From: Chiloscyllium plagiosum
Lineage: Eukaryota
Reading direction: 5' to 3'
DNA length: 43,355 bases
NCBI RefSeq assembly: GCF_004010195.1
Contig: NC_057718.1
Location: 82,601,848-82,645,202, forward strand
Shown here: positions 1,054 through 41,910 of the stretch, piece after piece
Numbering within the stretch: the first letter of the stretch is position 1
How the letters are laid out: the number at the start of each line of letters is the position of its first letter
Position numbers and translations under genes: made by a program
The notes under the pieces: model-generated
Told to the model about the DNA's origin: nothing
Seen by the model: the letters and a program-made list of their open reading frames with translations, nothing else
Database searches by the model: none

Positions 1054-1487
1054 GTAAGAGATGATTATTTGTTGTCTAAATGATCTCAATTTTAGTGGGC
1101 CAGCAACTGTGTTTTTAATTGAAAAGATGGAATTCTAAATTGTACTGTCAGCAACAATACTGTACATTTCCCATCATGCTTGACACCAGATTGAAGATGC
1201 GAGGTCCAATCTGTGCTCAGTTGGCTGAACTGAGGGGAAAAGACTCTACAGGTCCTCCTTTTGATTGCTATCCAGTGACCCCTGCTGGAACATCCATGTA
1301 TGTGCAGACTTCCAGTGAATCCAGCTCAGCCTCAGCTGTCAAACTGTCTGAACTCTGTTAAGACAAATGATCATGCAAGTGATGTCAGAGCTTTATAGAT
1401 CAGGCTGAGCCATAGCCAGGCAGCAGTGCCTCAGTTGAAAGCCTTGTTGGGTCATATAGTAAAGGTGAAGTCACCATAGTCCTAGAG

Positions 1488-1673
1488 ACAGTGAGGACCG
1501 CAGATGCTGGAGATCAGAGTCGAGAGCGTGGTGCTGGAAAAGCACAGCAGGTCAGGCAGCATCCGAGAAGCAGGAGACGGGCTTATACTCCTGATGAAAG
1601 GCTTATGCCTGAAATCTCGATTCTCCTCGGATGCTGCCTGACCTGCTGTGCGTTTCCAGCACCACAGTCCCAA
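1488..1673. mobile_element. Palindromic PLE-terminus mini-element with decayed hammerhead
   Basis: 40-bp inverted arms 1528-1567/1626-1665 (1 mismatch). CTGATGA-A-AGGC ttat GCCT-GAAA at 1591-1614. 13-bp TSD CATAGTCC(T/G)AGAG at 1475-1487 and 1674-1686. Confidence 0.85.
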
Positions 1674-2406
1674 CATAGTCCGAGAGTCCCACAGTGCTGT
1701 TCCCTTATAAGAGATGATTGTGGTGCATTTAACCTGAGGGTCACCGCACCTCAGGGAAGTGGCGTGGTAGGACCTTCAGCTGGCCCAGGAATTGGGGGCA
1801 CCATTGAACCCACACAATTGACATCAGTCACTGGCCAACTGAGCAACTGACCCCCATGCAGTGATACATCAGCAACGGCAGCGCCGTCAGGAGAGGTGGA
1901 ACAAGTGAATGTTCAGTCCGCTTTTAGTCCTAGTTCTAAATAGCAGGAATGTAATTTTTAACTAAGGCCTTTTTTTTATGAAAGCAAATGCATTTAATCA
2001 TTAAAACTTTGTAATTTTCATTTAAACCATGAATTTAAACACTAAATTAAAATTACCCTATGTTTGCAGTTTAGTGACACATATCAGCTAAATGAATGTA
2101 ATGAATATGCAAAAAGAATGAAAATAAAACCTACATTTTACGTGAGATGTTGTGCTGGGAATGCCGAGCTTGAAGAGGTGGTGGAGGCAGATTTAATAGT
2201 AACTTTCAGGAGTGAATTGGATGAATAATTGGAAAGGAAACATTTACAAACCCAGTCGGAAAGAGTAAGTCAGGTGGAACTGATTGGATAGCCTTTTCAG
2301 CATAATCTGGATGGGCTGAATAGTCATCTCCTTTGTAGGTTTGTAAGTTAAAGCAGTTGCTTTTAGTGCAACACCGTTCTGTACTAACGAATATGTTATG
2401 TTTCAG

Positions 2407-2481
2407 CTTTATAGTGATTGGTTACAGGAGTTCAAGCAGAAGACGTTGGAGTTCCTGAACCAGCCAAATAAAGACCCCTCC
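2407..2481 (+). CDS. RRBP1: RRBP1 exon B, LYSDWLQEFKQKTLEFLNQPNKDPS
   Basis: tttcag acceptor, tcc|gtgagt donor, 75 nt. Matches the NYTEWLQDLKEK segment of RRBP1. Confidence 0.9.
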
Positions 2482-3314
2482 GTGAGTACTGCTGGCAGAA
2501 AGAAGCAAATGTCAGAGTGAAGTATCTGGCTTTTTAACTGTAAAACCTCTCCCCTCTGTTCCTTTTTCACACTGGCATACAGTTGGCTTTTGTTACAGAG
2601 ACGCAGGGTAATTCTTCATGAGTAGTTAGCATTGTCAGACTATTCAATTACGTAAGACATCACAGTTGTACCCACCTCCTGTCCTGACCTCTTGATGATT
2701 ACAGATACTTGCCAGTGAGAAATGCTGAACAATTATCAGGTGATTTCTAACTCAAGCCGTGTCCAGTTCTCTCTCCTCCTGTGTGTCCCATTCTCCCCGG
2801 CCATTCCCTGGACTTGCACATTTCACATCTGCTTGCTCCCCTTGCCTGCCAGGAGAGCTCAAACTCACATGAGTGGACGAAGAATGAAAAAGAGCAGGGA
2901 AAAAAACACACAGCTTGCCATCTCCCTGTCCACCACAGAATAGTTTGACATCACCCACTTGAGCAACCCTTGGCTGATGAAACCAGCGTGCCCTCGCCTT
3001 TGGAAGCTCAGTCTCTCCCAGGGTTCTGCCAACTCATCCTGGCCTCGACTGCCTGTTCTTCTTGTCACGTGCTGCTCATGTCCAGCACACCACCTTGAAC
3101 TCTGCAGTCACAGTTCCACTTTAACCTGTCCGTTCTCTTTTCCAATTGGAACTTAATGCTCATCTCCGCTCGCTTATGCTTGCTGTTGTGAGTGTTTTGT
3201 TTTGGTGTGTGGTACCTTCTAGATTACTGCACAGTTGTGAACCCACACACCTTTTAGAGACAACGTTGATCAGGAATCTTCTTTTTTTTATTTCAAAAAT
3301 ATACTTTATTCATA

Positions 3315-3814
3315 NNNNNNNNNNNNNNNNNNNNNNNNNNNNNNNNNNNNNNNNNNNNNNNNNNNNNNNNNNNNNNNNNNNNNNNNNNNNNNNNNNNNNN
3401 NNNNNNNNNNNNNNNNNNNNNNNNNNNNNNNNNNNNNNNNNNNNNNNNNNNNNNNNNNNNNNNNNNNNNNNNNNNNNNNNNNNNNNNNNNNNNNNNNNNN
3501 NNNNNNNNNNNNNNNNNNNNNNNNNNNNNNNNNNNNNNNNNNNNNNNNNNNNNNNNNNNNNNNNNNNNNNNNNNNNNNNNNNNNNNNNNNNNNNNNNNNN
3601 NNNNNNNNNNNNNNNNNNNNNNNNNNNNNNNNNNNNNNNNNNNNNNNNNNNNNNNNNNNNNNNNNNNNNNNNNNNNNNNNNNNNNNNNNNNNNNNNNNNN
3701 NNNNNNNNNNNNNNNNNNNNNNNNNNNNNNNNNNNNNNNNNNNNNNNNNNNNNNNNNNNNNNNNNNNNNNNNNNNNNNNNNNNNNNNNNNNNNNNNNNNN
3801 NNNNNNNNNNNNNN
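3315..3814. other. Assembly gap (500 N)
   Basis: Run of N. Confidence 1.
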
Positions 3815-4109
3815 TTTGTATTTCTGCCCTCTGCCATTCTAAAAGATCACGGATGATCTGTTTGAGTTTTGAATTCCACATTCTCATCTATTCCCGTTAA
3901 CCTTTGATTCCACTGCCTGCTAAGAGTCTATTCACCTTCAATGGGAGATGGAGCTGTGTTAATCTTCACATAAAACACTCCCCCCCCCCGCACTCACTTA
4001 AACACAGAAAATGGGAACATTCTACTCCATGCAAATTAATCTACCACCCTAGTGATGACCTTTTCTTTGTGTTCTGTGCTTTCATGTGGCTATTGAGGTA
4101 TAGGGTTGG

Positions 4110-4191
4110 GTCAAAGAGTGTGGCACTGGAAAAGCACAGTTGGTCAGGCAGCATCTGAGGAGCAGGAGCGTCAATGTTTCAGGCATAAGCC
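4110..4191 (-). mobile_element. Half copy of the PLE-terminus mini-element
   Basis: ctggaaaagcacagttggtcaggcagcatctgaggagcaggag...gtttcaggcataagcc matches the arm of the 1488-1673 element. Confidence 0.75.
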
Positions 4192-4399
4192 TGTAGGGCG
4201 ATACTTAAGCCTGTAGGGCTGGGTGTTGGGTTACTAGATGAGTTAACTTTCCTAACTTACACATCGGTGTAAACTGCAGCTTGCTCATGTTTGAATACAC
4301 ACCGTCCCTACAACCATTGTGTACATCATATTCCAATGTCTGTTGTCTACAGTTGCTACAATGATTTCCCTCTTACCCCCTGATGTATTATGATACTTA

Positions 4400-4700
4400 G
4401 CTGTGACTCCTTATTAACATCCCTGTCTTTCGGTCAGAAGTTGGGAGTTCAAATCCCACACTGACAGTGTGATTATGAATCCAGGATGCCTGGGGAATAT
4501 ACTGATTTTTGGGTAAAGCACTACACTGAAGTTCTGTCTTCTGTATGTGGCGATATTTGGAGAAGACCAAGGAAGGCATTTTGGCTTTCAATATTTGTTC
4601 CACGTCATTAAAAAAAAATGATAATCTGGCTGTCGTGCAAATGCTGTTACGGGATCTTGGGTATGAAAATTGGCTGCTGCATTGCCTACATCACAACCAT
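4400..4700 (+). mobile_element. DeuSINE, degenerate
   Basis: gagttcaaatccca B box, then ...aatctggctg...aaattggctgctgcattgcctacatcacaac Deu-like 3' part. Confidence 0.6.
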
Positions 4701-4912
4701 GGGACTAGTTTCATTTGGAATTATGTTTGGCATGGATTGGTTGGACCAAAGGATCTATTTCTATACTGTATGTCTCTGTGTCTTCACTTTAAAGGATTCC
4801 ATTAGCTGTGCAGCACCTTTGGAACCCTGAGGCAATTGAATGTAAGTCCTTCCTTTCCATTGCCAACAGAAATGTTTATGATGATTCATTTCTTCTGTTC
4901 CAATTATTTCAG

Positions 4913-5002
4913 GATCTAGCACTTAAGTTAAAAGAAGCCGAAGAAGCCCAAAGCACTTTACAAGCAGATTGTGACCAATACAGAACAGTTCTTGCTGAGA
5001 CA
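4913..5002 (+). CDS. RRBP1: RRBP1 exon C, DLALKLKEAEEAQSTLQADCDQYRTVLAET
   Basis: tatttcag acceptor, aca|gtgagt donor, 90 nt. Near-identical to DLASKLREAEETQSTLQAECDQYRSILAET. Confidence 0.96.
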
Positions 5003-5123
5003 GTGAGTTCATTCAAACTCTTCTCTCCTATGTGACCTGTTGCTAATATGTGAACAGAGTCGACCACTGTGCCAGAGCTGAATATTTCAGTGTGTGTGCT
5101 TTCTCCTTTGCTCAATTTCACAG

Positions 5124-5216
5124 GAGGGAATGCTGAAAGACCTACAGAAAAGCGTGGAAGAGGAGGAGCACGTGTGGAAAGGGAAGTTAGCAGAGTCTGA
5201 GGCACAAGCTCAGAAG
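5124..5216 (+). CDS. RRBP1: RRBP1 exon D, EGMLKDLQKSVEEEEHVWKGKLAESEAQAQK
   Basis: ttcacag acceptor, aag|gtgagg donor, 93 nt, after a 121-nt intron. Matches EGMLRDLQKSVEEEEQVW. Confidence 0.96.
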
Positions 5217-5384
5217 GTGAGGTCATGTTTACTCGGTGTGAGGCTTTTCCATTCTGTTCCCTTGTGAAACAAACGGATTTTGGAAGATTATTCTCATTAA
5301 ACAAGGAGACCCCATTTACACTGAGACTGAAAGGAAAATTATGCCTATTCATTCCAATTAACCTGGTTGTGTTGCTCTGATCGG

Positions 5385-6258
5385 TATCTGTCCTCCTTGG
5401 CCCAACTTATCCATGCCACCCAGATTTCACAATTAATCTAGACCCATTTACCTGCAATTGGTCCATAGCCCTCCATACCTATCCCATCCATATATTGGTC
5501 ATAGAGTCATAGAGTCATAGAGATGTACAGCATGGAAACAGACACTTCAGTCCAACCCGTCCATGCCGACCATATATCCCAATCCAATCTAGTCCCATCT
5601 GCCAACACCCGGCCCATATCCCTCCAAACCCTTCCTATTCATATACCCATCCAAATGCCTCTTAAATTATGCAATTGTACCAGCCTCCACCACTTCCTCT
5701 GGCAGCTCAATCCAAACACTTATTACCCTCTGCGTGAAAAAGTTGCCCCTTAGATCTCTCTTATATCTTTCCCCTCTCACCCTAAACCTATGCCCTCTAG
5801 TTCTGGACTCCCCGACCCCAGGGAAAAGACTTTGCCTATTTACCCTATCCATGCCCCTCATAATTTTNNNNNNNNNNNNNNNNNNNNNNNNNNNNNNNNN
5901 NNNNNNNNNNNNNNNNNNNNNNNNNNNNNNNNNNNNNNNNNNNNNNNNNNNNNNNNNNNNNNNNNNNNNNNNNNNNNNNNNNNNNNNNNNNNNNNNNNNN
6001 NNNNNNNNNNNNNNNTCCTGCTAAGATTTCTTTCCCAAAATGCAGCACCTCACATTTATTTGAATTAAACTCCATCTGCCACTTCTCAGCCCATTGGCCC
6101 ATCTGGTCCAGATCCTGTTGTATTCTGAGGTAACCCTCTTCACTGTCCACTACACCTCCAATTTTTGTGTCATCTGTGGTCTAAATGTTTCTAAAATGAC
6201 AGAATTATACCCAGCTCCACAACGACCTCTGGTAACCCGTTCCAGAGACTCAGCACTT
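5385..6258 (-). mobile_element. CR1 LINE 3' end with a younger CR1 (5501-6176) nested inside
   Basis: (CATAGAGT)n tail at ~5500-5522; RGHRFRVRG...FFTQRV...W and WQMEFNSNKCEVLHFG peptides; TGGTC duplicated at 5496-5500 and 6177-6181. Confidence 0.9.
5868..6015. other. Assembly gap (148 N) inside a CR1 copy
   Basis: Run of N. Confidence 1.
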
Positions 6259-6559
6259 GTTGCCGCTGTAAAATGCTTTGGAACATCCTGAGGTGGTGAA
6301 AGGCGCCATACAAATGTAAATCTTGCTGTCATTTCCTTAAGGATAAAATCAAATCTAGCAGTTTTGGTCAATATACTGAAAAGGAATTGGGGACCTGTCC
6401 TAGAATTGTTGTAGTTCAGAGGAAGCATTTTCATTTTTTTCACCCCTCCCCCATCATCTTTGGCTAAGCACCCATCCTTCAACCTAAAGGAAATGATGGC
6501 GACCTGAACGTAGAGCCATAAGTTGGTGTTCCTTTTATAACCAGTGAATAGGGAATAAG

Positions 6560-8542: not shown

Positions 8543-8762
8543 CAAAATACTGCAGATGCTGGAAATCAAAAACAAGCAGAAAGTGGGGGGAACCGCAGGT
8601 CAAGTAGGATCTGTGGATACAGAAACAGAATTAACATTTCAGATTGATGGCCTCTCATTGGAATGCTTTCAATGAAAAGTCATGAACCTGAAATGTGAAC
8701 CCTTTCTTTCTGCGCAGAATCTGGCTGACATACTGAGTATTTTCTTAGTGTTTTCTATTTTT
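8543..8762. mobile_element. Old palindromic PLE-terminus mini-element
   Basis: aaatactgcagatgctggaaatc...atctgtggatacagaaacagaattaacatttca mirrored by tgaaatgtgaaccctttctttctgcgcaga...; heavily diverged. Confidence 0.65.
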
Positions 8763-9050
8763 AATACAGGAAATAGCATCTCTAGCTTTTGTGCAAATAA
8801 ACGGTCCTAATCTCTCGTAAGTGGTGTAGGGCTATAGTTTGTACGATTTAAATAAATCGAAGCACATTGCATGCAGTCTTGTTTGTTTTTCATTAATAAT
8901 GCTGTACAGTGTGGAATACAGCTGTATCATAGCACTACATCATTATACAGGTCCTTATATATAATAGGGATATTGTACTTGCATGAATGCACTTGGTAGA
9001 ATCAGTGGGGTCTTCGTGGTGACAGCTAATTGGTATTTCTGTTTTTACAG

Positions 9051-9122
9051 GCACAGCTACAAGTAAAAATGTTAGAGGACATGCTGGAGAAAATGAAGCT
9101 CGAATCCCAAAACTCAGAACAG
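9051..9122 (+). CDS. RRBP1: RRBP1 exon E, AQLQVKMLEDMLEKMKLESQNSEQ
   Basis: gtttttacag acceptor, cag|gtactt donor, 72 nt, in frame, coiled-coil composition. Confidence 0.88.
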
Positions 9123-13644: not shown

Positions 13645-13728
13645 GTAATTCTTTTTACAACATCACTTTCACTTAATTAAATCTTCAATCTTACAACATG
13701 CACTTCAAACTCAGCTGAGAGATATTTC

Positions 13729-13925
13729 TAGGCGAAAGTGAGGACTGCAGATGCTGGAGATCAGATACTAGATTAGAGTGGTGCTGGAATAGGTCAGGCA
13801 GCATCTGAGGAGCAGGAAAATCGATGTTTCAAACATAAACATTCCTGATGAAGAGCTTATGCCCAAAATGGTGACTCTCCAGCTCCTTGGATGCTGCCAG
13901 ACCGGCTGTGTTTTTTCAGCACTAC
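13729..13925. mobile_element. Palindromic PLE-terminus mini-element with decayed hammerhead
   Basis: gtgaggactgcagatgctggagatc tail and inverted arms. CTGATGA-A-GAGC ttat GCCC-AAAAT starting at 13845. Confidence 0.82.
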
Positions 13926-19148: not shown

Positions 19149-20157
19149 GTACTCGTGATGCATCTTGTACTTTATGTTCTACATGTGCACTCACAATGTA
19201 TCACATTCTTCCTGCAAAAAGAGTTACCTATCAGTGCCATTTTTGGTACAGTACATACTGAATAAATCATGTAAATGCTGTTCAGTGAGAGGCCATATCG
19301 TGACTTTAAAGCTGTTTAAGTTTCTGGTCATCATGGTCCAATGCTGAATTCTTTTTTCCTCTCCTTTATGGACTTTCTTACCATTTTGCTACTGCTTTTC
19401 TGAAAATCCTAACTCATAGCCTTGAATCCAGAGGCTCTGATTGCCCTCTGTAGCTCGCTCAATTGGCTAACATTGATACCCTGAGGCCCTTTGAGCATGG
19501 GGTGCATCACACGCCATGTCAGACAGAATGCAGTTTTCAGTTGGATTGTCATTGGGAGCCAGAATCCTGATTCACTGTCCCCCTCCCTTCCTGGCTCATT
19601 AATGTCTGTTAAGGATGCAATCCTACTTATTGCACTCAGTCTAAACGATATGTGACTCCGTTTTCAGCTCAGTTTGGTTCATCCTTATCTGTCCCCTGCT
19701 GTGACTTAGTGGTCTGCTCAGTTCTCTCAGTCTATTACGTGCCATGGTTCAAACAGAAAGCCCACCACTTTCTCAAGGTAACAAGCAATGGGCACTTAGT
19801 GAGCTTTACTAGTATTGCTCATACCCTGAGAATGAAAAAATGAAACAAAAACACAGCTATGTTTTACAAACATTTGCTACATTCGGTGGCAGACTGAGCA
19901 AAGCCATTACCGATTAAGCATTTCTAAATTATGGTAAATATAGGTAGCGCATATTTACATATAGATTTTCAGCTTCTGCAGTATTTTATTTTTTCTACTA
20001 AAAATGCAAGATTACAGTTTAGCCTTGAAGCCAATCATCTGTTTAATCTTATCCAATTTGTATTTCCTATCACTGTTCACACCAAACAGTGCCAGACACT
20101 GACCATCTCCACAAGGAAAGGATCTAACCATCACCCCATGACATTCAATGGCATTAT

Positions 20158-21900: not shown

Positions 21901-22382
21901 GTTATACCTCTGCCATCTAGAGTGATAAAGGCAGTAAATACATGGGAACACCATCACCAGCAAGCTTCCCTGCAAGCCGCACACCATCCTGACTTGGAAA
22001 TGTATTCTTGTTCCTTCGGTTTTATGTGGCCAGAATTCTGGAACTCCATCCCTAAAGGCATCATGCACATGGACGTCATGAACTTCATTGCTTGAAGAAG
22101 ACATCTCACCACCACCTTTCCCCAGGCATTGAGGAGGTTGGCAGTACATTCTTGCCACGCCAATGACACCCACATACCATGAAAGAATATATTTTTAAGA
22201 AGTATCCCCATCATTGCTCTAGGCAGGAACACTACTGCTGTGCCACAAGAACACTGAGATAATTGTGTAGATCTACCAAAGAGCCAGCAGAGCTGTGATA
22301 GGCCAATTGACCTCCCTTTTCCTTCTCATCCTATGACTGTGAAGCATCACCTACAGTTAGCTGAGGAATATACGTGCTGTCA

Positions 22383-22946
22383 GTCATAGAGTCTTAGAAA
22401 TGTACAGCACGGAAACAGACCCTTTGGTCCAACTCGTCCACGCCGACCAGATATCCCAACCCAATCTAGTCCCACCTGCCAGCACCCAGCCCATATGTTG
22501 CCCCTTAGGTCTCTTTTATATCTTTCCACTCTCACCCTAAACCCTTTAGTTCTGGACTCCCCCACCCCAGGGAAAAGACTTTGTCTATTTATCCTAATCC
22601 ATGCCCCTCATGATTTTATAGACCTCTATAAAGTCACCCCTCAGTCTCTGACACTCCAGGGAAAATACCCCCAGCCTAGTCAACCTCTTCCTACAGCTCA
22701 AATCCTCCAACCCTGGCAACATCTTTGTAAATCTTTTCTGGACCCTTTCAAGTTTCACAACATCTTTCCGATAGGAAGGAGACCAGAGTTGCATACAATA
22801 TTCCAACAGTGGCCTAACCAATGTCCTGTACAGCCGCAACATGACCTCCCAACCCCTGTACTCAATACTCTGACCAATAAAGGAAAGCATAACAAGCGTC
22901 GCCTTCACTATCCTATCTACCTGCGACTCCACTTTCAAGGAGCTAT
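22383..22946 (-). mobile_element. CR1 LINE 3' fragment
   Basis: ORF 22594-22938 LYRTLVRPLLEYC.Q.WSP.YRKD..KLERVQKRFT; tail near 22383. Confidence 0.93.
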
Positions 22947-23379
22947 CATAGCAGCTATTGGAGTTGCAATGTGGAGCATATACATGATCTTAAAGTTTAA
23001 AATTTGTACGTGTGCAAGGATTTCTTTGCTTCTGTTTTCTTCCCTGATATCCTGAGTCCATCCACTCGTGTCCAAAGGACGGGTGCCTGAATTCCTCCCA
23101 TATCACAGTTCAGTGAGTGTTAACAGAATGGCTAATACAGCCCAGCCAGTCTTGCTTTTGATTGATGTCTGCATGTGGTTGGGTATTGGGAGCACAGAAG
23201 CAGGAGGAGGCCATGGTGCTTCTCAAGTCTGTTGCACCATCCATATTGTTCATGACTGATAGGTCTCACAGACTTGCAACAGAGATTGAAGCGTTTGGGC
23301 TCCTTGGTTTACCCCATGGACATCTCACCGCTGCCATAAACACATCCAACCATGCCACCCATGTATTAGTCACAAGGTT

Positions 23380-24265: not shown

Positions 24266-25096
24266 TGATAGATAGTACCATTATGACATTTGTAAGATTA
24301 TATTTTGGAAATATCACTAATTAAAAATAAACAAAGGAGATTATGTGACCTCTTTCATAGTTTACTGAGGGTAAGCTTAAATAATTTGATTGTTAGAGAT
24401 CAGCAGAAGGCTTAAATTGTTCTTCTGCAAAGGTACAAGGTCCTTATTTGAAGGCAAGGACAGCGGTCTCTGAGTTTACGATGAGCAGACTCTTGAGTCT
24501 CCCAAAGTCCCAGAAAGCTATTGAAGGTCGTGGAACGTAAATAAATTTGTTGAAATTTTCTGTTTACTTCTCTGATGAAAGGGAGTTGAGATCAAGGTTA
24601 GTTAATGAGTGTTTTACCTAAACACAAGGCCAATGTATTTCACATGGTCATGGAAAGAGGCAGAGGAAGCATTTGTGAGGTGAAATTGCAGGCTTCTTTG
24701 CAAGTGAATGAACATCACAGTTTCTATGTGGCCAGCCAAGAGAAATGCTGCCTGGATTCTGAACTACCACAGACAAATGCAGGAGGGAGACAGTCTTTAG
24801 TTGAAGAGACACATTCTCAGTCTGGATTCAGAGAAACTCTGCCATGGTTGTAGAAAAATGAATCCACAGAATATGTCTGACTGCTGGAATTCTCCAAAAA
24901 CAGCGGAAGGAGTCTGGAGACAGTCATTTAAAATGGGATACTGGCACCCATGGGAAACGAGGAACAAATGTGAAATGTTTTCCAAAAGGACTTAATTCTG
25001 TGGAGAGTGCAACAGGTGATACATGCAAAATAGGAATGTCACTTTCTGCAGTTTAAATTATCAGTAGCTTGGAAATCAAAAATAGTTCTTAATTAT

Positions 25097-25245
25097 AAAC
25101 AAAAACAGAAATTGCTGGAAAAACTCAGCAGGTCTGGCAGCATCTGTGGAGAGAAATCAGAGATGCTGCCAGACATGCTGAGTTTTTCAATCAATTTCTG
25201 TTTTTGTTTGTGATTTGCAGCACCAGAATTTCTTTCGGTTTTTAT
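25097..25245. mobile_element. Palindromic PLE-terminus mini-element lacking the hammerhead centre
   Basis: 49-bp inverted arms 25097-25145/25161-25209. The arm matches 28177-28225 of the PLE remnant. Confidence 0.82.
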
Positions 25246-25757: not shown

Positions 25758-26508
25758 GAGTCATAAAGCTGTACAGCACAGAAACAGATCCTTTGGTCCA
25801 ACTCGTCCATGCCGACCAGATATCCTAAATTAATCTAGACCCATTTACCAGCACTTGGTCCATATCCCTCTAAACCCTTCCTATTCATATACCCATCCAG
25901 ATGCCTTTTAAATGCTGTAATTGTACCAGCCTCCTCCACTTCCTCTGGCAGTTTATTCCATACACGTACCACCCTCTGTGTGAAATGGTTGCCCCTTAGC
26001 TCCCTTTTATATCTTTCCCCTCTCACCTTAAATCTATGCCCTCTAGTTCTGGACTCCCTGACCCCAGGGAAAAAACTTTGTCAATTTACCCTATCCATGC
26101 CCCTCATGATTTTATAAACCTCTATAAGATCACCCCTCAGCCTCCGACGCGCCAGGGAAAACAGCCCCAGCCGTTCAGTCTCTCCCTATAGCTCAAATCA
26201 TCCAACCCTAGCAACATCCTTGTAAATCGTTTCTGAATCCTTTCAAGTTTCACAGCATCCTTCTAACAGGAAGGAGACGAGAATTGCATGCCATATTCCA
26301 AAAGTAGCCTAACAAATGTCCTGTACAGTGGCAACTTGACCTCCCAACTCCAATTCTCAATTGCCTCACCAATAAAGGAAAGCATACCAAACACCTTCTT
26401 CACTATCCTATCCAGGAACTATGAACCTGCTCTCCAAGGTCTCTTTGCTCAGCAACACTCTCTGGGACCTTACCATTAAGTCCTGCTCTGATTTGTTTTT
26501 TCCAAAAT
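25758..26508 (-). mobile_element. CR1 LINE 3' fragment
   Basis: RGNHFTQRVVRVWNKLPEEV...FKRHLD peptide; same 3' tail as other copies. Confidence 0.93.
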
Positions 26509-27126: not shown

Positions 27127-27379
27127 AAAGCTTTTATTTGGGATGGTCCACCTAAATGATAGGATTTCCATATTACAAAAAGCGATAAAGGTTCTTGGGT
27201 ATTGTTCTAGGTTTGAGTTGCACTGGCTTTTTTGGGCATATCATGACAAGGCATACAAATGAGGTGCTGAGTGGGCCTCATGGCAAATGGCATGGATTGG
27301 TACTAGCTAGCGTGAAACTATTCCTCATTGAGGTTGACTGCCGTCAGCCCTGGAACTGTACCTCAGTGTTTACGGCACC

Positions 27380-28256
27380 TTCCAATGCAGTTGCAGGTGT
27401 AATACCTGCCTGTTTGCCTCCTCCATTCTCACAATCCAGACACAGCTCCCAGGTGAATCAGTGATTTACCTGTACTTCACTCACTCTACTCTATCACTGT
27501 TCCCAGTCTGGTCTTTTCCTATATCGGTAAAAGCAGACTGGGTGACATCGTTGCGGACCAGCTGTGTTCTTTCCACAAAAATGACCCCAAGTTTCCAGTT
27601 GCCTGCCACGTCAACCACCATGTTCCCACTCCAACATTTCTGTCTCAGGCCTGCTACAGTATTCCAACGAGCCTCAGCGCAAGCTCTTAGAGCAACATCT
27701 TATTTTCTATTTGGGGACCCTGCATCCTCAAGGACTTCACATCGAGTTCAATAACTTTACAGCCTGATTCCATCCTTCTATGTCTTTCACCCATCCCATA
27801 CCCGGTCCAATCCTGATACAGTCACCCCATCTCACATACTCCCATTGTCACATTATCTGGTTTGCTTTTAGTATGGGTCACCCATTCTCTCCTACTCTTA
27901 GCTTTAATTATCACTAATCTAACTTTTCTTCTGTCCTGGCCTGCTTTCCATATTGTCCTTGTTTATCTACCCTTTTCATACCCCTCTCTTTCTCTCTCTC
28001 GCGCTCTCTCTCTCTCGCGCTCTCTGTCTGGGTTCCACCTCCACCTATCCACTCACCCCTTCCCTTCACCCTTTTGCCAACTTGGTCTCCTGCGTAAATA
28101 CCACGTTTTCCCAGCTTCTAACAGTTCTGATGAAGAGTCACAGGATTCGAAATGTTAACTCTGCTTTCTTCCCACAGATGCTGCCAGACCTGCAGAGATT
28201 TGCCAGCAATTTCTGTTTTTGTTTTAGGTCTCCAGTTTCTGCAGTTTTATGTCTTA
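27380..28256 (+). mobile_element. Degenerate PLE 3' fragment (Neptune-type Cys linker + GIY-YIG remnant + pyrimidine-rich 3' region + hammerhead-bearing terminus)
   Basis: Frameshifted FQCSCRCNTC, FTCTS, YIG, RLGD and DPKFPVACH motifs. CTGATGA-A-GAGTC acag GATTC-GAAAT at 28127-28153, followed by cacagatgctgccagacctg...tttttgttt. Confidence 0.8.
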
Positions 28257-32922: not shown

Positions 32923-34051
32923 ACGTAGAACATAGAACATTACAGCACAGTATAGGCCCTTCAGCACTCCATGTTGCCCCAACCTGTGGAACCAAACTGA
33001 AGCCTATCTATCCTATACTATTCCATTTTCATCCATATGTTTATCCAATGGCCATTTAAATGCCCTTAAAGTTGTTGAGTTGACTACTGATGCAGGCAGG
33101 GAATTCCATGCCCTTACTACTCTGAATAAAGAACTTACCTCTGACATCTGTCCTACATCTATCACCCCTCAGTTTAAAGCTATGTCCCCTCATGCTAATC
33201 ATCACAATTTGAGGAAAAAAGCTCTCACTGTCCACCCTGCTCATCCTCTGATCATCTTGTATGTCTCTACTAAGTCACCACTTAACCTTCTCTCTATCAA
33301 AAACAGCCTCAAGTTCCTCAGCCTTTTCTCATAAGACCTTCCCTCAACACCAAGCAACATCCTGGTAAATCTCCTCTGCACCCTTTCCCAAACTTTTACA
33401 TCCTTCCTATAATGCCGCAACCAGAACTGTATGCAACACTCCAAGTGTGGCCATACCAGAGTTTTGTACAGCTGCAACATGACCTCATGGCTCCAAAACT
33501 CAATCCCTCCATCAATAAAAGCTAACACACCATATACCTTCTTAACGACCCTATCAAACTGGGTGGCAACTTTCAAGGATCTATGCAAACAGACACCAAG
33601 ATCTTTCTGCTCATCCACACTACCAAGAATCTTACCATTAGCCCAGTACTGTATTCCTGTTATTCCTTCCAAAGCGAATCACCTCACATTTTACCACATT
33701 AAACTCCATTTGCCACCTCTCAACCCAGCTCTGCAGCTTAACTATGTCCCTCTGCAACATCCTTCAGCACTATCCACAACTCCACTGACCTTAGTGTCAG
33801 CTGCAAATTTACTAACCCATCCTTCTACGTCCTCATCTAGGTCATTTATAAAAATGACAATAGCAGTGGACCCAAAACAGCGCCTTGCAGTACATCACCA
33901 GTAACTGAACTCCAGGATGAACATTTCCTATCAACCACCACACTCTGTCTTCTTTCAGCTAGCCAATTTCTGATCCAAATCGCTCAATCATCCACAATCC
34001 CATGTCTCCGTATTTTCTGCAAGAGCCTATTGTGAGGAACTTTATCAAATG
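32923..34051 (-). mobile_element. CR1 LINE 3' fragment, (CATAGAA) tail subfamily
   Basis: ORF 33241-33672 DLGV.LHRSLKVA.Q...LYKTLV.PHLE.C.QFW. Confidence 0.93.
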
Positions 34052-34319
34052 TAGGAGAAAGGGCTGAGAGCTTATGAGCTAGAGGCTGAACAATGGAGAC
34101 TGCAACACGTCAGGTGTAGAGTGGGCAGGTGCTGCATTCCTCCCAGCAGGGGCTACTTACACCTCACAGGATAGGAACTTCTGATTTGGTCAGTGGTCAC
34201 GTGACTATGACAGAGGCATTTAAGGGGAGCCACAGGACTGGAGCACCTCTAGGTGTCCAATAGGTTGAAGGTTCTCTCAGCCTGTTCGGATTAGAGCCAG
34301 GGCTGCAGGTTCAAACTGA

Positions 34320-37060
34320 GCCAATTTGATTCCCTCCACGTGACATCAGCAAATGGTTGGCACTGGCAAATGTAAAGGCTATGGGCCTGGACAACGTTCT
34401 GGCAATCGTACTGAAGGCTTGTGTTCCAGAACTTGCTGCTCCCCTGGCCAAGCTCTTCCAGGACAGTTATAAGACTGGGATCTACCCGACAATGTGGAAA
34501 ATTGCCCAGGTATGTTCTGTACATAAAAAGCAGGATAAATCCAAACCAGCCAATTACCACCCCATCACTCTACTCTTGATCATTAGGAAAGTGATGCAAG
34601 GTGTCATCAGCAATGCTCTCACGCAGCACCTGCCCAGCAATAAACTGCTCAATGACACCCAGATTGGGTTCCACCAGGGCCACTCAGCTGCTAACCTCAT
34701 ACAGCCCCAATCATAGACAAAAGAGCTAAATTCCAGAGAGTGAGGTGACAGTGATAGTCTTTAACATCAAAGTTACATTCGGCTAAATATGGCAACATGG
34801 AGAGCGAGCAAAACTGGAATCGTAGAGTTACTGAGATGGACGGCATAGAAAAAGATCCTTCGGTCCAACTTGTCCATGCCAACCAGATATTCTAAATAAA
34901 TCCAGCATTTGGCCCATATCCCTCCAACCCCTTCCTAATCATACAGCCATCTAGATGCCTTTTAAATGTTGTAATTGTACCAGCCTCCACCACTTCCTCT
35001 GGCAGCTCATTCCATACACGCACTATCCTCTGTATTAACATGTTGCCCCTTAGGTCCCTTTTAAGTCTTTCCCCTCTCTCCTTAAACCTGTGCCCTCTCA
35101 TGTTGAACTCTCCCACCCCAGGGAATAGACCTTGTCTATTTATCCTATCCATGCCCCTCATGATTTTATAAATCTCTACACGGTCACCACTCAGCCTCTG
35201 ATGTTCCAGGGAAAACAGCCTCAGCCTGTTCAGCCTCTCCCTATAGTTCAAATCCTCCAACTCTGGCAACATCCTTGTAAATCTTTTCTGAACCCTTTCA
35301 AGTTTCACAACATCCTTCCTGTAGCAAGAAGACCAGAACTGAATACAATATTCCAAAAGTGACTTCCCCAATGTCCTGTACAACTGCAACACAACCCCCA
35401 ACTCCTATACTCATCCCGTTGTACTCTGAGGTAGCCTTCTTCACTATCCAGTACACCTCCAATTTTGGTGTTGTCTGCAAATTTACCAACAGTACTTCCT
35501 TTATTCACATTCAAATCATTTATATAAATGACAAAAAGCAGTGGACCCAGCACCAATCCTTGAGGTGCACCACTGGTCACAGGCCTCGAATCTGAATAAC
35601 AACCCTCCACCATCCTCTGTTTCCTACCTTTGAGCCAATTTTGTATCTGAATGGCTAGTTATTCCCATATTCCATACAATCTAACCTTGCTAACCAGTAT
35701 ACCATGCAGAACTTTGTCACACACCTTACTGAAGTCCATATAGACAACGTCCACCACTCTGCCTTCATCAATCCTCTTTTTCACTTCTTCAAAAACCTCA
35801 AGTTTGTGAGATGCAATTTCCCAAGCACAAAACCATGTTGACTATCCCTAAGCAGTCCTTACCTTTCCAAATACATGTAAATCCTATCCCTCAGGATTCC
35901 CTCCAACAACTTGCCCACCACCAACATCAGGCTCACTGGTCTATAGTTCCCTAGCTTGTCCTTACCACCTTTCCTAAAACAGTGGCACCACGTTTGCCAA
36001 CCTCCAGTCTTCCAGCACCTCACCTGTGACTATCGATGATACAAATATCTCAGCAAGGGGCCCAGCAATCATTTCCCTAGCTTTCTGTAAAGTTCTAGGG
36101 TACACCTGATCAGGTCCAAGGATTTATCCACCTTTATGCATCTTAAGACATCCAACACCACCTCCTCTGTAATATAGTCACTTTTCAAGGTATCATTATT
36201 TATTTACCCAAGATGTCTAGCTTCCACATTCTCCTCAGCAGTAAATACTGATACATTTTGTAACTCACCCATTTCCTGCGGGTTTCACACATATGAATAC
36301 AAGGGAGCAGTCATGCCTAGTAAATAGGAAGATGGCCTTGGTTGTTGGAAGGTAGTCATCTCAGCTTCAGGACATTTCTACAGGAGTTCCTCAGTGTATT
36401 GTCCAAGGCCCAACTATCTTCAATTGTTTCATCAATGATGTTCCTTCATCATAAGGTTAGAGTGGGGATGTTTGCTGATGATTGCATAATATTCAGCACC
36501 ATTCATGGCTCTTCAGATACTGAAGCAGTCCATGCTCAAATGCACCAAAATCAGGATAGTATCCAGGCTTTGGCTGACAAGTGACAAGAAACACAAGTGG
36601 CACCACACAAATGCCAGACTATGACCATCACCAATAAGAGACAAGCTAACTATCACCTTTGACATTCAATGATCTTACCATCACTGAAATCCCCAACTAT
36701 TAATATCCCAGTGGTTACCGTTCACCTGAAACGTAACTAGACTCACCACATAATCACAATGGCTACCGAAGCAGGTCAGAGATTAGGAATACTGCGGTGA
36801 CTAACTCAACTCCTGACTCCCCCAAGCCCCAATCATCTACAAGGGGCAAGTGTGATGGAGTATTCCCCACATTGCCTGAATGGATGCAGTTTCAACAATA
36901 CTCAGGCACTTGATTGACAGTACATCCACCAATGGTTTGCAGGTGGACCGCAGCGGTTCAAGAAGGCAGTTCACCACCACCTTCGCAAGGGCAAATAGGG
37001 GCAGGCAATAAATGCTGGCCAGCTAGTGATGCCCGCATCCCAAGAATGAATTAATACAAA
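34320..37060 (+). mobile_element. Second CR1-superfamily LINE family (RT to 3' end), split by the CR1 at 34823-36288
   Basis: KAMGLDN...PELAAPLAKLFQ...W..A.V..VHKK.DKS.PANY.PI.LL; MFADDC; 3' end aataaatgctggcc...cccaagaatgaa. Confidence 0.85.
34823..36288 (-). mobile_element. CR1 LINE ORF2 RT/3' fragment nested in another LINE
   Basis: VTSGAPQGLVLGPLLFVIYINDL and KFADNTKIGG RT motifs; C-terminal ORF 34892-35401. Confidence 0.94.
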
Positions 37061-37851
37061 ATGGCACCGTGGTAACAAGGAATTATTCAAGTTGGGGTAG
37101 GAAGCAACAAGGAATAAAGCAGTTGTAGGGAATAGTGTAGTGACGAGGATGGGGAAGATCCAATGGTTGAGGTCTGTGAAGATACCAACATCACAGATAG
37201 GACAAGGAAAGGGATTCTAAAGAAATTGAGGATCTGGGAACTGAATCAAAAAGTAGAACCTCAAAGGTTAGAATCTCTTACTAGAGCCACATGCAAGTTA
37301 GCATAGGGTACATAAAATGAGAGAGGTGAACTTGTGACACGAAGACTGGTGAAGGAGAAATAGGTTTTAGTCTGTGGACCACTGAAACCAGCGCTGGGGA
37401 ATGTCAGAGTTCTACCATTGAGACAGTCTATACCTGAACCATGCTGGGGGCAATCTTCTTGTGAACTGTGTAACTGAGGAAGTAGGGAGTTTTAAAGTAA
37501 ATTGTAGAGGCAAGAGATCAAATATGGGAGGAAGTGATTTGTCAAAAAGTAGAGACAAAGTAAGAAAGGGAAATAGTGATACAAGAAATGAGGATCAGAG
37601 AACAGAAGGGAGGGGCAGAGAAAAAAAACTATTAATACACCAACATTCAAGACTACGTGCTACATACACAACAAAAAGACAAAATTAAACCGTCTGTGTC
37701 TGCATATGTGCAGCATTCATAACAAAATAAACAAATAGCACACATTGAAACAAATGAATATAATCCAATAGCCATTATGAAGACTTGGCAGCATGATGAT
37801 AAGTATTGGGGTTTAGGGTGTAGCTTTACTCGCTGAGCTGTAGGTTTATAT

Positions 37852-37891
37852 CCAGACGTTTCATTACCTGGCTAGGTAACATCATCAGTGG
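37852..37891 (-). ncRNA. Minimal type I hammerhead ribozyme, mirror copy
   Basis: Exact reverse complement of 38685-38724. Confidence 0.85.
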
Positions 37892-38272
37892 CGACCTCCA
37901 AGTGAAGCGAAGCTGTTGTCTCCTGCTTTCTATTTATATCTTTCCCCTGGATGGGGTTCCTGGGTTTTGTGGTGATGTCATTTTCTGTTTGTTTTCTCAG
38001 GGGTTGATAGATGGCATCTAGATCTATGTGTTTGTTTATGACGTTGTGGTTGGAGTGCCAAGCCTCTAGGAATTCTCTGGCATGTCTTTGCTTAGCCTGT
38101 CCCAGGATAGATGTATTGTCCCAGTCGAATTGATGGTTTTTTTCATCCGTGTGTAGGTCTACGAGGGAGAGAGGGTCGTGTCTTTTTGTGGCTAGCTGGT
38201 GTTTGTGTATCCTGGTGGCTAACTTTCTTCCTGTTTGTCCTATGTAGTGTTTGTGGCAGTCCTTGCATGGAA

Positions 38273-38587
38273 CCCATGAACAAAACCAACGTCATCTACA
38301 AAATTCCATGCAAGGACTGCCACAAACACTACGTAGGACAAACAGGAAGAAAGTTTGTCACCAGGATACACGAATACCAGCTAGCCACAAAAAGACACGA
38401 CCCTCTCTCCCTCGTAGCCCTACACACGGATGAAAAAAACCACCATTTTGACTGGGACAACACATCTATCCTGGCTCAGGCTAAGCAAAGACATGCCAGA
38501 GAATTCCTAGAGGCCTGGCACTCCAACCACAACACCATAAACAAACACATAGATCTAGATACCATCTATCAACCCCTCAGAAAATGA
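38273..38587 (+). pseudogene. 5'-truncated PLE ORF, GIY-YIG endonuclease domain
   Basis: VIY...CxxC...YVG, conserved R, E and N of the GIY-YIG fold. The mirror arm reads YIG and is open from 38270 to 37872 on the minus strand. Confidence 0.9.
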
Positions 38588-38684
38588 ACAGGAAATGACA
38601 TCATCACAAACCCCAGGAACCCCATCCAGGACAAACATATAAATAGAAAGCAGGAGACAACAGCTTCGCTTCACTTGGAGGTCA

Positions 38685-38724
38685 CCACTGATGATGTTAC
38701 CTAGCCAGGTAATGAAACGTCTGG
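38685..38724 (+). ncRNA. Minimal type I hammerhead ribozyme of the PLE terminus
   Basis: CCA-CTGATGA-T-GTTACCT agcc AGGTAAT-GAAAC-GTC-TGG: catalytic boxes, stem II, palindromic ACGT stem III, stem I CCA/TGG. Confidence 0.85.
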
Positions 38725-40584
38725 ATATCAAACCTACAGCTCAGCGAGCAAACCTACACCCTAAACCTCAACCTGAACTACAAACCTTCACAAACCTTGC
38801 AATAAGTATTGGGTTTTGAATCTTAAGGTGTATCCAGGAAGAATAGGAAACTAAGCAGCACTGTTAATTAAGGAGTTGATAAAATGTTATCAAGGTAGTT
38901 TCTTAGAGCTGCATATTCTAGAAACAACCAGACAGCAGATTATATTAGGCTTGGTATCAGTAATGAGATAGTATTAATTAAATAGCTCAAATTAAGGGTA
39001 CCCAATGCATCAGTAACCTTTAATAATCTTGAATTTTACAAGCAGTTTGAAGGGAGAAGATTAGGTCTGAGATTTGTGTTTTAAACCTAAATAACGTGAG
39101 CATGAAAGCTGATCTAAAAACTAAAGTGAACTGGCATACTAGGCTAGGAGACAGATCAATAGAGACATAGTGGCAGGCATTTAAGGGATATTTCAGAATA
39201 CTCAGAATAAATATGTCCGTGCTATAAAAAGAATTTTTAAAGGGTAGATTCAGCATCCATGGTTAACTAAAGGCAAAACCATAACTATGCAAAGATGAAC
39301 AGCAGGTCAGATAATTGGTCAGAATATGAAGAGCAGCAGAAAATGACTGAAAGATTAATCGGGAGGAAGACATTAGAATATGACTGGACGCTAACTAGGA
39401 ATGTAAAATTAGCAAGGATTTTCACAGGTATTTTAAAAGGAAAATAATTCGTAACTTGAGTGCTGGCCATCTCAGTGAGTGAGAATGGGGAGTTAATGGT
39501 AGATGATATGGAAATGGCAGATGAAATGAATAAATATTTTGCTTCTGTCTTCACTATTGAGGATACCAAAAAAAATTCCAGTAAGGTGTAAATCAGGAGG
39601 TCAAAGAGAGAAAGGAACTTAATGAAGTTATGATCACAAGGAAGTGATATCGTGCAAAGTGATAAAACTGTGGGCTGACAAGTCTGGGGGTTCAGATGGA
39701 ATTTATCCCATGGTCTCAAATGAGATTGCTAATTTTCCAAAATTCCCTAGATGCCATTAGACTGCAAAGTGGCAACTATAACCCCTCTATTCAAGAAGGA
39801 AGGGAGTCAGAAAACAGGATAGTCCTTTCTGTGGTCCTTTCTGTAGGCAGTAAAAAGCTAAACCAGTTATATAGTAGGTTGTTTCAAGTGTGCATCCCTT
39901 AGAGCCTGAGGGAGAGTAATAAGAGCCTAGGGTTAGGAAGAGACTAATGGGAAGCAGGGCATAGTGGATGGAGTTGAGGATGCAGTTGAACAGTTTGGTA
40001 GCTGCACAAATATTATGGTGACGTGAGTTTAGTCAGGTGGATCCAACTGTCATAAATTAGTTGGGAGTGAGGTCTGATGGCTTAGAGAGCAGCATCCTTG
40101 CATCTGATCCAGAAGCTCAGGGATCAACTCTCACTCCAAGACTTGATGACTAAGGAGTAATTGTCAGCCTGTACATCCTGCTTGTATACCACTGGCCATG
40201 CTCCAGGTGCCAGGTCAGGATACATGGGAAAGGTTAGCATCAGGAAGTGTCTCCAGTGGTTACCCCAACCCATCCCCTCCCCCAACACCATCACTGTCAA
40301 TGGTTGATATGAAGGCAATCAACTGGCATTGTGATGATCCCTGTAACACAGGAAACCAAAGGAATGAGAAGTATAAATGGGGAGAGTACTACTTGCTGGA
40401 GCCAACACAGAAGGAAGTAGGGCTGGGAGAGACTGAGGTTGTGTATGGTACGTACTAAACAAGGAAGTGATCAGAAATGGTCTTTGGAATTGAGACAGTG
40501 GGAGCAGCAAGGTCACAAGACGACAAGGCCTGTGAATTTGGATTGGGGACGTTTTTGAAAAGTATTTCGCATGAAGTGCTCATC

Positions 40585-41910
40585 ACCAATGAAGTCAACA
40601 TTTCTTGCCCATCCTTAATTGCCCTTGAAAATGGTAGTGAGCCATCCTTCTACACCACTAAACTCCATGTGGTGTAAGTACACTGTGCTCATAGAAAGGG
40701 AGTTCCAGAATTTTAACCTAGTGACATTGAAGAAACAATGATATAGTTCCAAATCAGAATGCTTTGTGACATCAGTGGTGGTCACATTACCTCGTAATTG
40801 CTGCTCTTGTCCTTTTAAGTGGCAGAAGTCACACATTTGAACGCTGCAGCACATCTTGTCATTGGTGGTGTAAGAGATCATTTAAGTGGTGGTTAGGCTA
40901 TTGATGAGCTGGGGTGCTTTGCCTTGAATGGTGTTGAACCTATTGAACATTGTTGGAGCAGCACTCATCCAGTTAACCACAGCCCTGACTTGTGCATTGT
41001 AGATAGAGGACAGGCTTTGGGAGTTAGGAGGTGACAGGATTCCTCATGTGGCTGCACTATTAATATGACTGGTCCAGTTCAGTTTGGATTAATGGTATTC
41101 TGGATTAGTGGAGCTGGAAGAGCACAGCAGTTCAGGCAGTATCCAAGGAGCTTCGAAATCGACGTTTTGGGCAAAAGCCCTTCATCAGGAAGCTTGGATG
41201 CTGCCTGAACTGCTGTGCTTTTCCAGCACCATTAATCTAGAATCTGGTTTCCAGCATCTGCAGTCATTGTTTTTACCTCGTTGGATTAATGGTAACCCCA
41301 GGAAACTGATCATGGGGATTTCAACCATAGAATATCATTGGAAGATAGTTCGATTCTCTCTTGTTGAAGATCGTCATGCATGTTACTTGTCACTTACCAG
41401 CTCACATCTGAAAATCGCCCGGGTCTTCCTGCACTATGGGCAAAGCCATTTCAGTTTCTGAGGGGTTGTAAATGGTGTTGAACATTGTCAACAAACAACA
41501 AACCTACTTATTTTAAAAGGCAGTCGTTGATGAAATAGCTAAAAATGGGGTTAGGATACAATTCTGAAGAACTCTTACTCATGCCCTTGGATTGGCACAA
41601 ACAGCTTTGTGTTCCTTTGTGCTCCAGACAGTGGAGATTTTTCTCCCAATTTCCACTGATCCCAGTTTCGCTAGGGCTCCTTGATGCTGCACGCAACCAA
41701 ATGCAATCTTAATGCCAAGGGCTGTAACCCTTACCTGACCTTTGGAATTCAACTCTTTTGTCAATGTTTAGACCTGAGGCTGCAACCAATTCGGGAAATG
41801 GTTAGCTCTGGTCAAACCCACAATGAGCGTCATTGAACAGGTTATTGCTGTATAAATGTCCCTGAAGATATCAATAGTGCTATCATCACTTTATTCATGA
41901 TCAGAAGCAG
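40585..41910 (-). mobile_element. Second LINE family, antisense degenerate copy
   Basis: Reverse complement of motifs at 21900-22190 and 36330-37050. Confidence 0.75.
41098..41280. mobile_element. Palindromic PLE-terminus mini-element, hammerhead on minus strand
   Basis: Perfect 14-bp TSD TTGGATTAATGGTA at 41084-41097 and 41281-41294. Minus strand reads CTGATGA-A-GGGC tttt GCCC-AAAAC-GTC. Confidence 0.88.

Follow-up and report, generated by a model that had tools for sequence, protein, structure and literature searches.

We analysed a 43,355-nt window of the Chiloscyllium plagiosum genome (NC_057718.1:82,601,848-82,645,202, forward strand), in which a search for host-gene exons identified none. 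The window carries hairpins that are head-to-head pairs of PLE ends with a tail on one side; the short copies have no ORF. All PLE pieces together make up 7% of the window, and in six of the nine an inverted 5'-truncated copy lies adjacent, head to head. The features are given below, with the strand where one was assigned.

120-228, minus strand: possible heavily decayed single arm of family B (Neptune-type end), marginal by nhmmer
1475-1487: left TSD of the 1488 copy, matching 1674-1686 at 12 of 13 positions
1488-1586, minus strand: short arm of family A with an apparent 10-nt deletion and a tail of about 40 nt at 1488-1527; begins in hammerhead stem II, at +13 from C3
1587-1673, plus strand: long, tail-less arm of family A with the hammerhead core at 1591-1614; begins 4 nt 5' of the core
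1674-1686: right TSD of the 1488 copy
4112-4191, minus strand: single tail-less arm of family A, beginning at +9 (stem II)
8543-8762: old family B hairpin with the tail at its left end; both arms pass through a decayed hammerhead and join 2-5 nt 5' of it (nhmmer, profile built without these arms: E 2.5e-12 and 1.8e-4)
13729-13925: old family A hairpin; the short arm, with the tail, is at the left and reaches stem II, and the long arm (13839-13925) begins 6 nt 5' of a decayed core
25091-25245: family B hairpin (the 25097 copy) without a hammerhead, arms beginning at +38 and +46, tail at about 25216-25245
27374-27768, plus strand: decayed coding sequence for a Neptune-type linker and GIY-YIG endonuclease, interrupted by stops and frameshifts (tblastn, phmmer)
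28110-28256, plus strand: terminus of the Neptune-type remnant, with a hammerhead at 28127-28152, the conserved end and a tail
37799-37814: left TSD of the long fold-back, matching 38802-38817 at 15 of 16 positions
37815-38272, minus strand: tail-less inverted arm of family C (Penelope/Poseidon-type) with the C-terminal part of GIY-YIG and an intact predicted hammerhead at 37888-37859
38273-38801, plus strand: direct arm of family C with GIY-YIG at 38276-38584, an intact predicted hammerhead at 38688-38721 and an AC-rich 39-nt tail at 38763-38801
38802-38817: right TSD of the long fold-back
41084-41097: left TSD of the 41098 copy, matching 41281-41294 at 14 of 14 positions
41098-41191, minus strand: long, tail-less arm of family A (second subfamily) with the core at 41188-41165; begins 3-4 nt 5' of the core
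41193-41280, plus strand: short arm of the 41098 copy, beginning at +41, with a 38-nt tail at 41243-41280
41281-41294: right TSD of the 41098 copy

A sequence-only reading of this DNA had listed five palindromic copies and two half copies, with inverted arms and a tail on one side. All five palindromes turned out to be real. Their self-reverse-complement scores are 156, 110, 84, 168 and 164, and the 95th percentile of 421 sliding 200-nt windows is 54. By self-comparison, the arms are 88% (1519-1674), 90% (25091-25215), 90% (41097-41243), 79% (8631-8699) and 81% (13792-13903) identical. The tail of 30-40 nt indeed occurs at one end only (38 nt in the 41098 copy, 39 nt in family C, about 40 nt in the 1488 copy and about 30 nt in the 25097 copy). 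Of the half copies, 4112-4191 was recovered with E 1.4e-18 by an nhmmer profile built without it. The one at 120-228 stayed marginal: one profile gave E 0.003 over 169-222, and neither a second profile nor BLAST found it.

The termini of families B and C are attached to a C-terminal GIY-YIG (27374-27768 and 38276-38584, respectively), as is characteristic of EN+ PLEs. The family B fragment 27374-27768 matched proteins P0044, P0046 and P0036 in tblastn with E values of 5e-12 to 3e-14. A full HMMER protein search (phmmer) with it gave 30 matches, and a word-indexed protein search matched none of five candidates. Ahead of the endonuclease lies a CX3CxxC linker (27374-27439), which can be aligned to that of P0044 and P0046; a CX2-5CxxC linker distinguishes the Neptune clade. 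Judged by its sequence, the coding remnant 27374-28256 is Neptune-type. The arm 25097-25162 is 91% identical to 28224-28159 over 66 nt, which confirms the proposed link between the 25.1-kb arm and the terminus of the GIY-YIG remnant. What ties family A to Neptune is solely its resemblance to the end of family B (E 7.6e-8), and the window contains no coding copy of it. With Pfam, the best GIY-YIG match of the window's own fragments had E 0.044, under the cut-off. No PLE reverse transcriptase was found in the window copies; the family C relatives P0007, P0012 and P0003 carry RVT_1, which passes the Pfam cut-off in one of four relatives. Pattern matches in metagenome contigs were discarded as chance, since at all 14 loci the likeness is confined to the 21-nt pattern plus a few adjoining letters.

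The sixth fold-back (37815-38801), Poseidon-type and absent from the earlier list, has the architecture of the short hairpins with longer arms. Its arms of 428 nt both encode GIY-YIG, and the 39-nt tail is accompanied by a TSD of 11-16 bp, 5 nt of which fit the element as well. Its GIY-YIG shows 81% identity with shark proteins; with a 705-aa protein that bears a reverse transcriptase, identity is 68%. None of the seven relatives checked, of 22 found, has the CX2-5CxxC linker, as in the Penelope/Poseidon clade. The arms differ by 5 synonymous and 12 non-synonymous changes; at an expected neutral synonymous fraction of 0.26, this indicates neutral decay. The differences are thus uninformative, and we dropped the idea that the arms came from diverged functional templates.

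The two TSDs of 13-14 bp and differing sequence that had been reported for the short copies were found again (1475/1674 and 41084/41281); among random site pairs, at least 12 matches occurred in 6 of 1,940. Together with the long fold-back, TSDs of 13, 14 and 11-16 bp flank three of the nine PLE pieces, and their sequences are unrelated. We found no convincing TSD at 8543, 13729, 25097 or 120, and at 4101/4214, where the flanks match at 10 of 11 positions, a TSD is uncertain. Scanning the window for the minimal type I hammerhead motif gave five matches (predicted ribozymes), with cores at 1591-1614 (+), 41188-41165 (-) and 28127-28152 (+) among them. A further, degenerate core lies at about 13845, in the 13729 copy. 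Read off the sequence, core and cleavage triplet are both intact in none of the five short copies: the 1488 copy has no cleavage triplet, the 13729 and 41098 copies carry AAAA in place of GAAA, and the hammerhead of the 25097 copy is entirely absent.

Identical central junctions across loci had been named as the sign of a self-propagating element. No two of the six fold-backs in the window have the same centre. Relative to C3, the arms start at -4 and +13 (1488), -6 and about +13 (13729), -4 and +41 (41098), +38 and +46 (25097), and at about -2 to -5 in both arms of the 8543 copy; those of family C start deep in the ORF. Inner ends scatter from -6 to +46 in the short hairpins, and outer ends are the tail or the tail-less terminus. 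In five of seven short copies, the long arms stop close to the core, within about 2-11 nt on its 5' side. This boundary is sharper than random truncation would give, and it would require a transcription start, a splice site, a block to the reverse transcriptase or a dedicated short RNA. In four of the five asymmetric hairpins (1488, 13729, 25097 and 41098), it is the tailed arm that is the shorter one at the centre. Each arm therefore has sequence missing from the other, from which we infer that neither was copied from its partner. This is pointing to two separately primed cDNAs per hairpin, which fits the extension of both strands by an anole PLE in vitro. The 1488 and 13729 centres are alike (long arm from -4 or -6, short arm in stem II), and a common ancestor is conceivable. 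The two arms of the 13729 copy may belong to different subfamilies, as two RNA templates would leave them. When the A and B arms were folded, the conserved end paired with the tail in three of six; one arm only beat its shuffles (z -2.96), and we make no claim from it.

We compared public sequencing runs with the 41098 copy to assess how common its centre is. More than 50,000 contigs per DNA run matched the copy. The depth was 40,030 at the centre versus 13.77M at the hammerhead in run X1, and 7,370 versus 4.30M in X7, i.e., 0.2-0.3% in these two DNA runs; this rarity applies to one centre, and a symmetric centre that is common may be counted too low, because near-perfect palindromes interrupt assembled contigs. 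Raw reads of X21 numbered 23 at the centre versus 613 at the hammerhead, and at that position 17 of the 23 have a different letter. In four runs (674, 723, 398 and 140 records), loose ends on the 5' side of the core reach an agreement of just 0.33-0.42, against 0.64-0.79 for ends running collinearly into stem II. The loose-end consensuses show several subfamilies, and, by the loose ends before 41193, most short arms extend past the cut site into stem II. Among the 15 joints listed of 155, no junction dominated and five were of the skip type, each with 0-5 contigs; neither an empty-site joint nor a piece spanning the whole 41098 stretch was among those listed. Some joints recur at a depth of 200-700, roughly 5-60 times the single-locus depth. 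Ten listed joints on "opposite strands" (41156-41159 to 41193-41199) do not count as junctions: in them, collinear arms of the other subfamily are split over the two arms of the reference. In RNA, 2,449 of 12,955,460 raw records matched, on both strands and with ends that did not pile up, in a poly(A) single-cell library that would miss small RNAs.

This architecture, which had been put forward as an under-described system, is already in print. As far as the accessible text of these papers goes, EN+ PLE insertions have an inverted pLTR, a 31-bp tail, 8-10-bp TSDs and solo pLTRs (Arkhipova et al. 2013, PMC3846280), or an adjacent inverted 5'-truncated copy plus a 30-40-bp tail (Craig et al. 2021, PMC8557442); the latter states that the origin of the tandem and inverted structures is open. 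The shark pieces share with them the inverted terminus in head-to-head order, arms of unequal length, a tail of 30-40 nt on one side, a TSD of variable length, a pLTR with a hammerhead and the C-terminal GIY-YIG. Unlike the published insertions, the short shark copies have no ORF body, so that the inverted pLTR lies directly on the pLTR; their density is very high, and the TSDs are 11-16 bp rather than 8-10 bp (PMC3846280). According to the text available for the Anolis carolinensis Poseidon element PAc (Frangieh et al. 2024, PMC11167929), both target strands are nicked and extended in vitro, ribozyme cleavage is dispensable, and two internal start sites define the tail. Family C resembles PAc in its ATG at the start of stem II (38694, from which the frame is open), AC-rich tail and two end positions. 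Its cut site and tail end lie 28 and 108 nt into the frame, compared with 26 and 111-118 in PAc. The Neptune-type families A and B have a terminus different from that of PAc, and complete palindromic insertions are not among the products reconstituted in the accessible part of that work.

Metazoan PLE hammerheads likewise have a type I core without helix III and an extra base ahead of stem II. The survey in question, in its accessible text (Cervera and de la Pena 2014, PMC4209133), reports solitary motifs in their thousands along with pairs on opposite strands, separated by 100-700 bp, as here, and interprets single and paired minimal motifs as truncated PLEs; that text neither names sharks nor describes TSD-bounded hairpins. 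Our literature search, whose coverage excluded most subscription papers and bioRxiv supplements, returned no publication that describes shark PLE hairpins without an ORF.

We propose, with a probability of about 0.65, that a single insertion by a PLE with an endonuclease produced each hairpin, the PLE being Neptune-type for A and B and Poseidon-type for C. A protein with reverse transcriptase and GIY-YIG would nick both target strands 11-16 nt apart, and from each 3' end a cDNA would be primed at either of two internal sites close to where pLTR and ORF meet. Which site is used would decide whether the arm carries the 30-40-nt tail. These cDNAs would extend back about 50-130 nt, no further than the immediate 5' side of the hammerhead; if the template were a tandem read-through RNA, the arms could be longer, as in the 428-nt case. 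Joining of the cDNA ends head to head would then leave a TSD-flanked palindrome with a new centre every time. With the anatomy, the TSDs, the differing centres, the long-armed coding example and the rarity of one centre directly observed, we infer that both strands are primed at a single site, that the cDNA ends are joined and that ordinary PLE transcripts supply the template with their 5' pLTR. Counting against this model are the sharp stop of the long arms near the core, the likeness of the 1488 and 13729 centres and the joints that recur above single-locus depth. PLE termini, one-sided tails and unrelated TSDs support the first option of the sequence-only reading, extremely truncated fold-back PLE insertions. 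Its preferred option, a self-propagating, ribozyme-processed, retrozyme-like family, is not supported, given the six different centres, the rarity of the 41098 centre in four runs and arms that end at the tail with the core kept.

That option, in which the whole hairpin is transcribed, cut by the hammerhead and retrotransposed as a unit, appears improbable. It could draw on the similar 1488 and 13729 centres, on the few joints above single-locus depth and on the descent of animal retrozymes from PLE pLTRs, given in the accessible part of a preprint (bioRxiv 10.64898/2026.07.22.740005). As the available texts describe them, non-LTR retrozymes (Cervera and de la Pena 2020, PMC7229834; Li et al. 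2026 preprint) also resemble the hairpins in their PLE-related type I hammerhead, non-coding nature, long TSDs and unit size. However, they are head-to-tail tandems with a ribozyme per unit and abundant circular RNAs, whereas the shark hairpins are head-to-head, non-tandem and tail-bounded; none of seven TRF rows involves a hairpin. Since the arms end at the tail and not at the cut site, the hairpins are not retrozymes; the missing intact ribozymes also argue against self-propagation, which is largely refuted for the 41098 centre. Non-autonomous DNA transposons (MITEs) deserve hardly any credence: element size and inverted arms would suit them, but asymmetric ends and unrelated TSDs, neither short nor fixed in length, exclude them, and what forms the arms are PLE termini linked to sequence encoding GIY-YIG. 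The earlier remark that the hairpins look like MITEs and are nevertheless retrotransposed is supported.

A more serious, still doubtful competitor to one-off insertion from PLE transcripts keeps the rebuilding of the hairpin at each insertion and changes the template, which would be a short, dedicated non-coding transcript of solo pLTRs or of earlier stubs. The sharp 5' edge at the hammerhead, the heterogeneous sequence beyond it in four runs, the several subfamilies and the lack of a coding family A copy in the window would agree with this, as would the mobilisation in trans of sequence by pLTRs alone (PMC3846280, accessible text). Yet internal initiation on the 5' pLTR of ordinary PLE mRNA, as PMC11167929 in its available text leads us to expect, would give an equal boundary; moreover, the family B end is joined to a coding remnant, and the RNA records show no pile-up of ends, for what a poly(A) library can tell. 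We hold it similarly tentative that an RNA of about 130 nt, from the 5' edge of the hammerhead to the tail, made a SINE-like, non-autonomous Neptune partner with hundreds of thousands of shark copies and two separately primed cDNAs per site. If so, double target priming by a PLE dimer would be readable directly from the genomic junctions.

A new family of self-copying mini-elements does not hold up, and the hairpins are very abundant PLE end pieces, each apparently rebuilt at its own insertion. Such stubs offer very many minimal TSD-bounded insertions for a statistical test of self-priming against double priming, and the same set allows a test of what sets the 5' boundary at the hammerhead. 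In an Rfam scan of the window, no hammerhead family matched and all seven matches lay below the gathering threshold, microRNA matches among them; PLE-stub hairpins could easily be mislabelled as MITEs or microRNA precursors.

The short hairpins in the window are real and abundant, and they are a minimal form of a known insertion pattern of Penelope-like elements (PLEs). The sequence-only reading had listed five palindromic copies, and all five were found as hairpins, with self-reverse-complement scores of 84–168 against a 95th percentile of 54 for the window background. Of the two half copies it had proposed, the one at 4112-4191 is certain and the one at 120-228 is marginal in a profile search. 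A longer fold-back, family C, was absent from its list. The names of the best-matching proteins suggest a carpet-shark-like host genome. Arm starts are counted from C3 of the core of the hammerhead, the type I ribozyme of the PLE terminal repeat (pLTR):

120-228, marginal half copy, perhaps family B
1488-1673, hairpin, family A; arms start at -4 and +13
4112-4191, half copy, family A; arm starts at +9
8543-8762, hairpin, family B; both arms start at about -2 to -5
13729-13925, hairpin, family A; arms start at -6 and about +13
25097-25245, hairpin, family B; arms start at +38 and +46
27374-28256, coding remnant, family B; decayed GIY-YIG domain with a CX3CxxC linker 5' of it
37815-38801, fold-back, family C
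41098-41280, hairpin, family A; arms start at -4 and +41

Family A includes at least two subfamilies, and profile comparison showed a conserved end common to families A and B. The claimed match of the 25097 arm to the end of the coding remnant is 91% over 66 nt. A CX3CxxC-type linker before the endonuclease is described in PMC8557442 as a mark of the Neptune clade. Protein relatives of the remnant come from skates, rays and the whale shark.

The family C fold-back has arms of 428 nt with 94% identity. Both arms encode the GIY-YIG domain and carry an intact minimal hammerhead in a motif scan; a 39-nt AC-rich tail is present on one side only, and the target site duplication (TSD) is 11–16 bp. 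Together with its TSDs it spans 37799-38817, and no other PLE insertion in the window is as well preserved. Its relatives carry reverse transcriptase (RT), and 0 of the 7 checked have a CX2-5CxxC linker; therefore, family C is of the Penelope/Poseidon type. The ATG lies at the start of stem II, the cut site 28 nt and the tail end 108 nt into the open frame. This layout closely resembles that of PAc, the Poseidon element of Anolis carolinensis, where these points lie at 26 and 111–118 nt (PMC11167929). Thus, the identical architecture exists with arms reaching the ORF.

Both TSDs claimed for short copies hold, at 13 bp (12/13) and 14 bp (14/14), against a null of 6 matches in 1,940 site pairs; none was found at the flanks of the other short copies. 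In each of the three copies with a TSD, the target sequence at the end without the tail is similar to the end of the element (1472-1487/1660-1686; 37810-37819; 41084-41111), with 10/11 at 1488 and 41098 and 5 shared nt in family C. This hints at microhomology or target preference.

All six hairpin centres differ. The cut site is not the arm boundary, because it would lie near +27; on the outside, arms finish with the tail or at the terminus without it. Read from the sequence, none of the five short copies has an intact core with a cleavage triplet. The arms of 13729-13925 share 68% identity over 53 columns, further apart than in the other hairpins, and at their outer ends they look like members of different subfamilies. 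This may reflect two RNA templates, or age alone.

One centre, that of 41098, was compared with four public runs, aligned to 41020-41360 at 80% likeness. There were 54,561 and 50,229 matching contigs in two DNA runs, 6,767 in a third contig run, and 2,449 matches among 12.96 million raw RNA records. The locus itself is present in one DNA run (flanks with 0–1 differences). Depth at the centre was 0.29% (X1) and 0.17% (X7) of hammerhead depth, where contigs break at near-perfect palindromes and summed depth is no copy number. In raw reads, 23 covered the centre vs 613 the hammerhead, and 17 of the 23 carry another letter. The sequence that continues beyond the core on its 5' side varies (agreement 0.33–0.42); arms continuing into stem II agree at 0.64–0.79. 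Among the 15 joints listed of 155, 10 were rejected as junctions, being collinear artefacts, and 5 are skip-type, supported by 0–5 contigs each and reaching a depth of at most about 700, some 5–60 times that of a single locus. Both strands are represented among the RNA reads; if the library is stranded in the usual way, the hammerhead-sense strand outnumbers the other by about 2.5:1 over the core. Read ends did not pile up in this run, whose poly(A) library would not capture RNA that is small or circular.

In both arms the RT start ends point outward and the truncated ends meet at the centre. In 1488, 13729, 25097 and 41098 the arm that carries the tail reaches less far towards the centre than its partner. 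Each arm therefore holds sequence absent from the other, which one cDNA folded back on itself would not be expected to yield. Family C, with its tail on the longer of the two arms, and the symmetric 8543 fit either a fold-back cDNA or two cDNAs. Self-priming on an antisense template is a possible alternative origin of inverted arms, put forward in Arkhipova et al. 2013 (PMC3846280). If two nicked target strands each primed a cDNA, at two start sites, and the cDNAs were then end-joined head to head, all six hairpins would be explained. According to PMC11167929, PAc nicks and extends both strands, is predicted to be a dimer, and does not require ribozyme cleavage; it initiates at two neighbouring internal positions, and these define the tail.

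An ordinary transcript starting in the pLTR would be copied into a run-off cDNA about 100–130 nt long, because initiation is internal, near the ORF 5' end. Such run-off may account for the abundance of stubs and for the boundary immediately 5' of the hammerhead. A dedicated short RNA setting this sharp boundary seems unlikely. A pyrimidine tract with AG immediately 5' of the family B hammerhead (28090-28123) is splice-acceptor-like and could set the 5' boundary of arms; in D. virilis Penelope, the intron ends at helix I (PMC4209133).

Earlier papers describe inverted pLTRs, tail, TSD and solo pLTRs (PMC3846280), an adjacent inverted 5'-truncated copy with a 30–40-bp tail (PMC8557442, PMC8969392), and solitary and opposite-strand minimal hammerheads (PMC4209133). 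Retrozymes are tandem (PMC7229834; a 2026 preprint), whereas the window hairpins are not. Among the papers listed by literature searches, none deals with ORF-less PLE hairpins in sharks; Dfam and Repbase were outside the comparison.

Beyond the 4112 half copy, 12–13 nt are locally duplicated (4186-4224), and a possible 10/11 TSD lies at 4101/4214. At 19963-19987 an isolated stretch of 24 nt matches the family B tail at 92%; in the profile search it is not significant (E 0.25). On the + strand, 961-1051 and about 2409-2518 look like coding exons with splice signals; they flank the 1488 copy, which is therefore intronic. Their peptides recall ribosome-binding protein 1/kinectin, and had no match in the protein atlas and Pfam. 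PLE endonuclease sequence lies within or ends annotated shark and ray proteins (P0002, P0009, P0022, P0029, P0044; MAP3K7, CUEDC2, WBP2-like, neuromedin-U receptor and mucin-2 isoforms), either as exonised copies or as gene-model artefacts. A LINE-type repeat unrelated to the hairpins has multiple copies with RT-like coding remnants (5400-6250, 22380-22950, 25760-26410, 33250-35650, 42390-42740).
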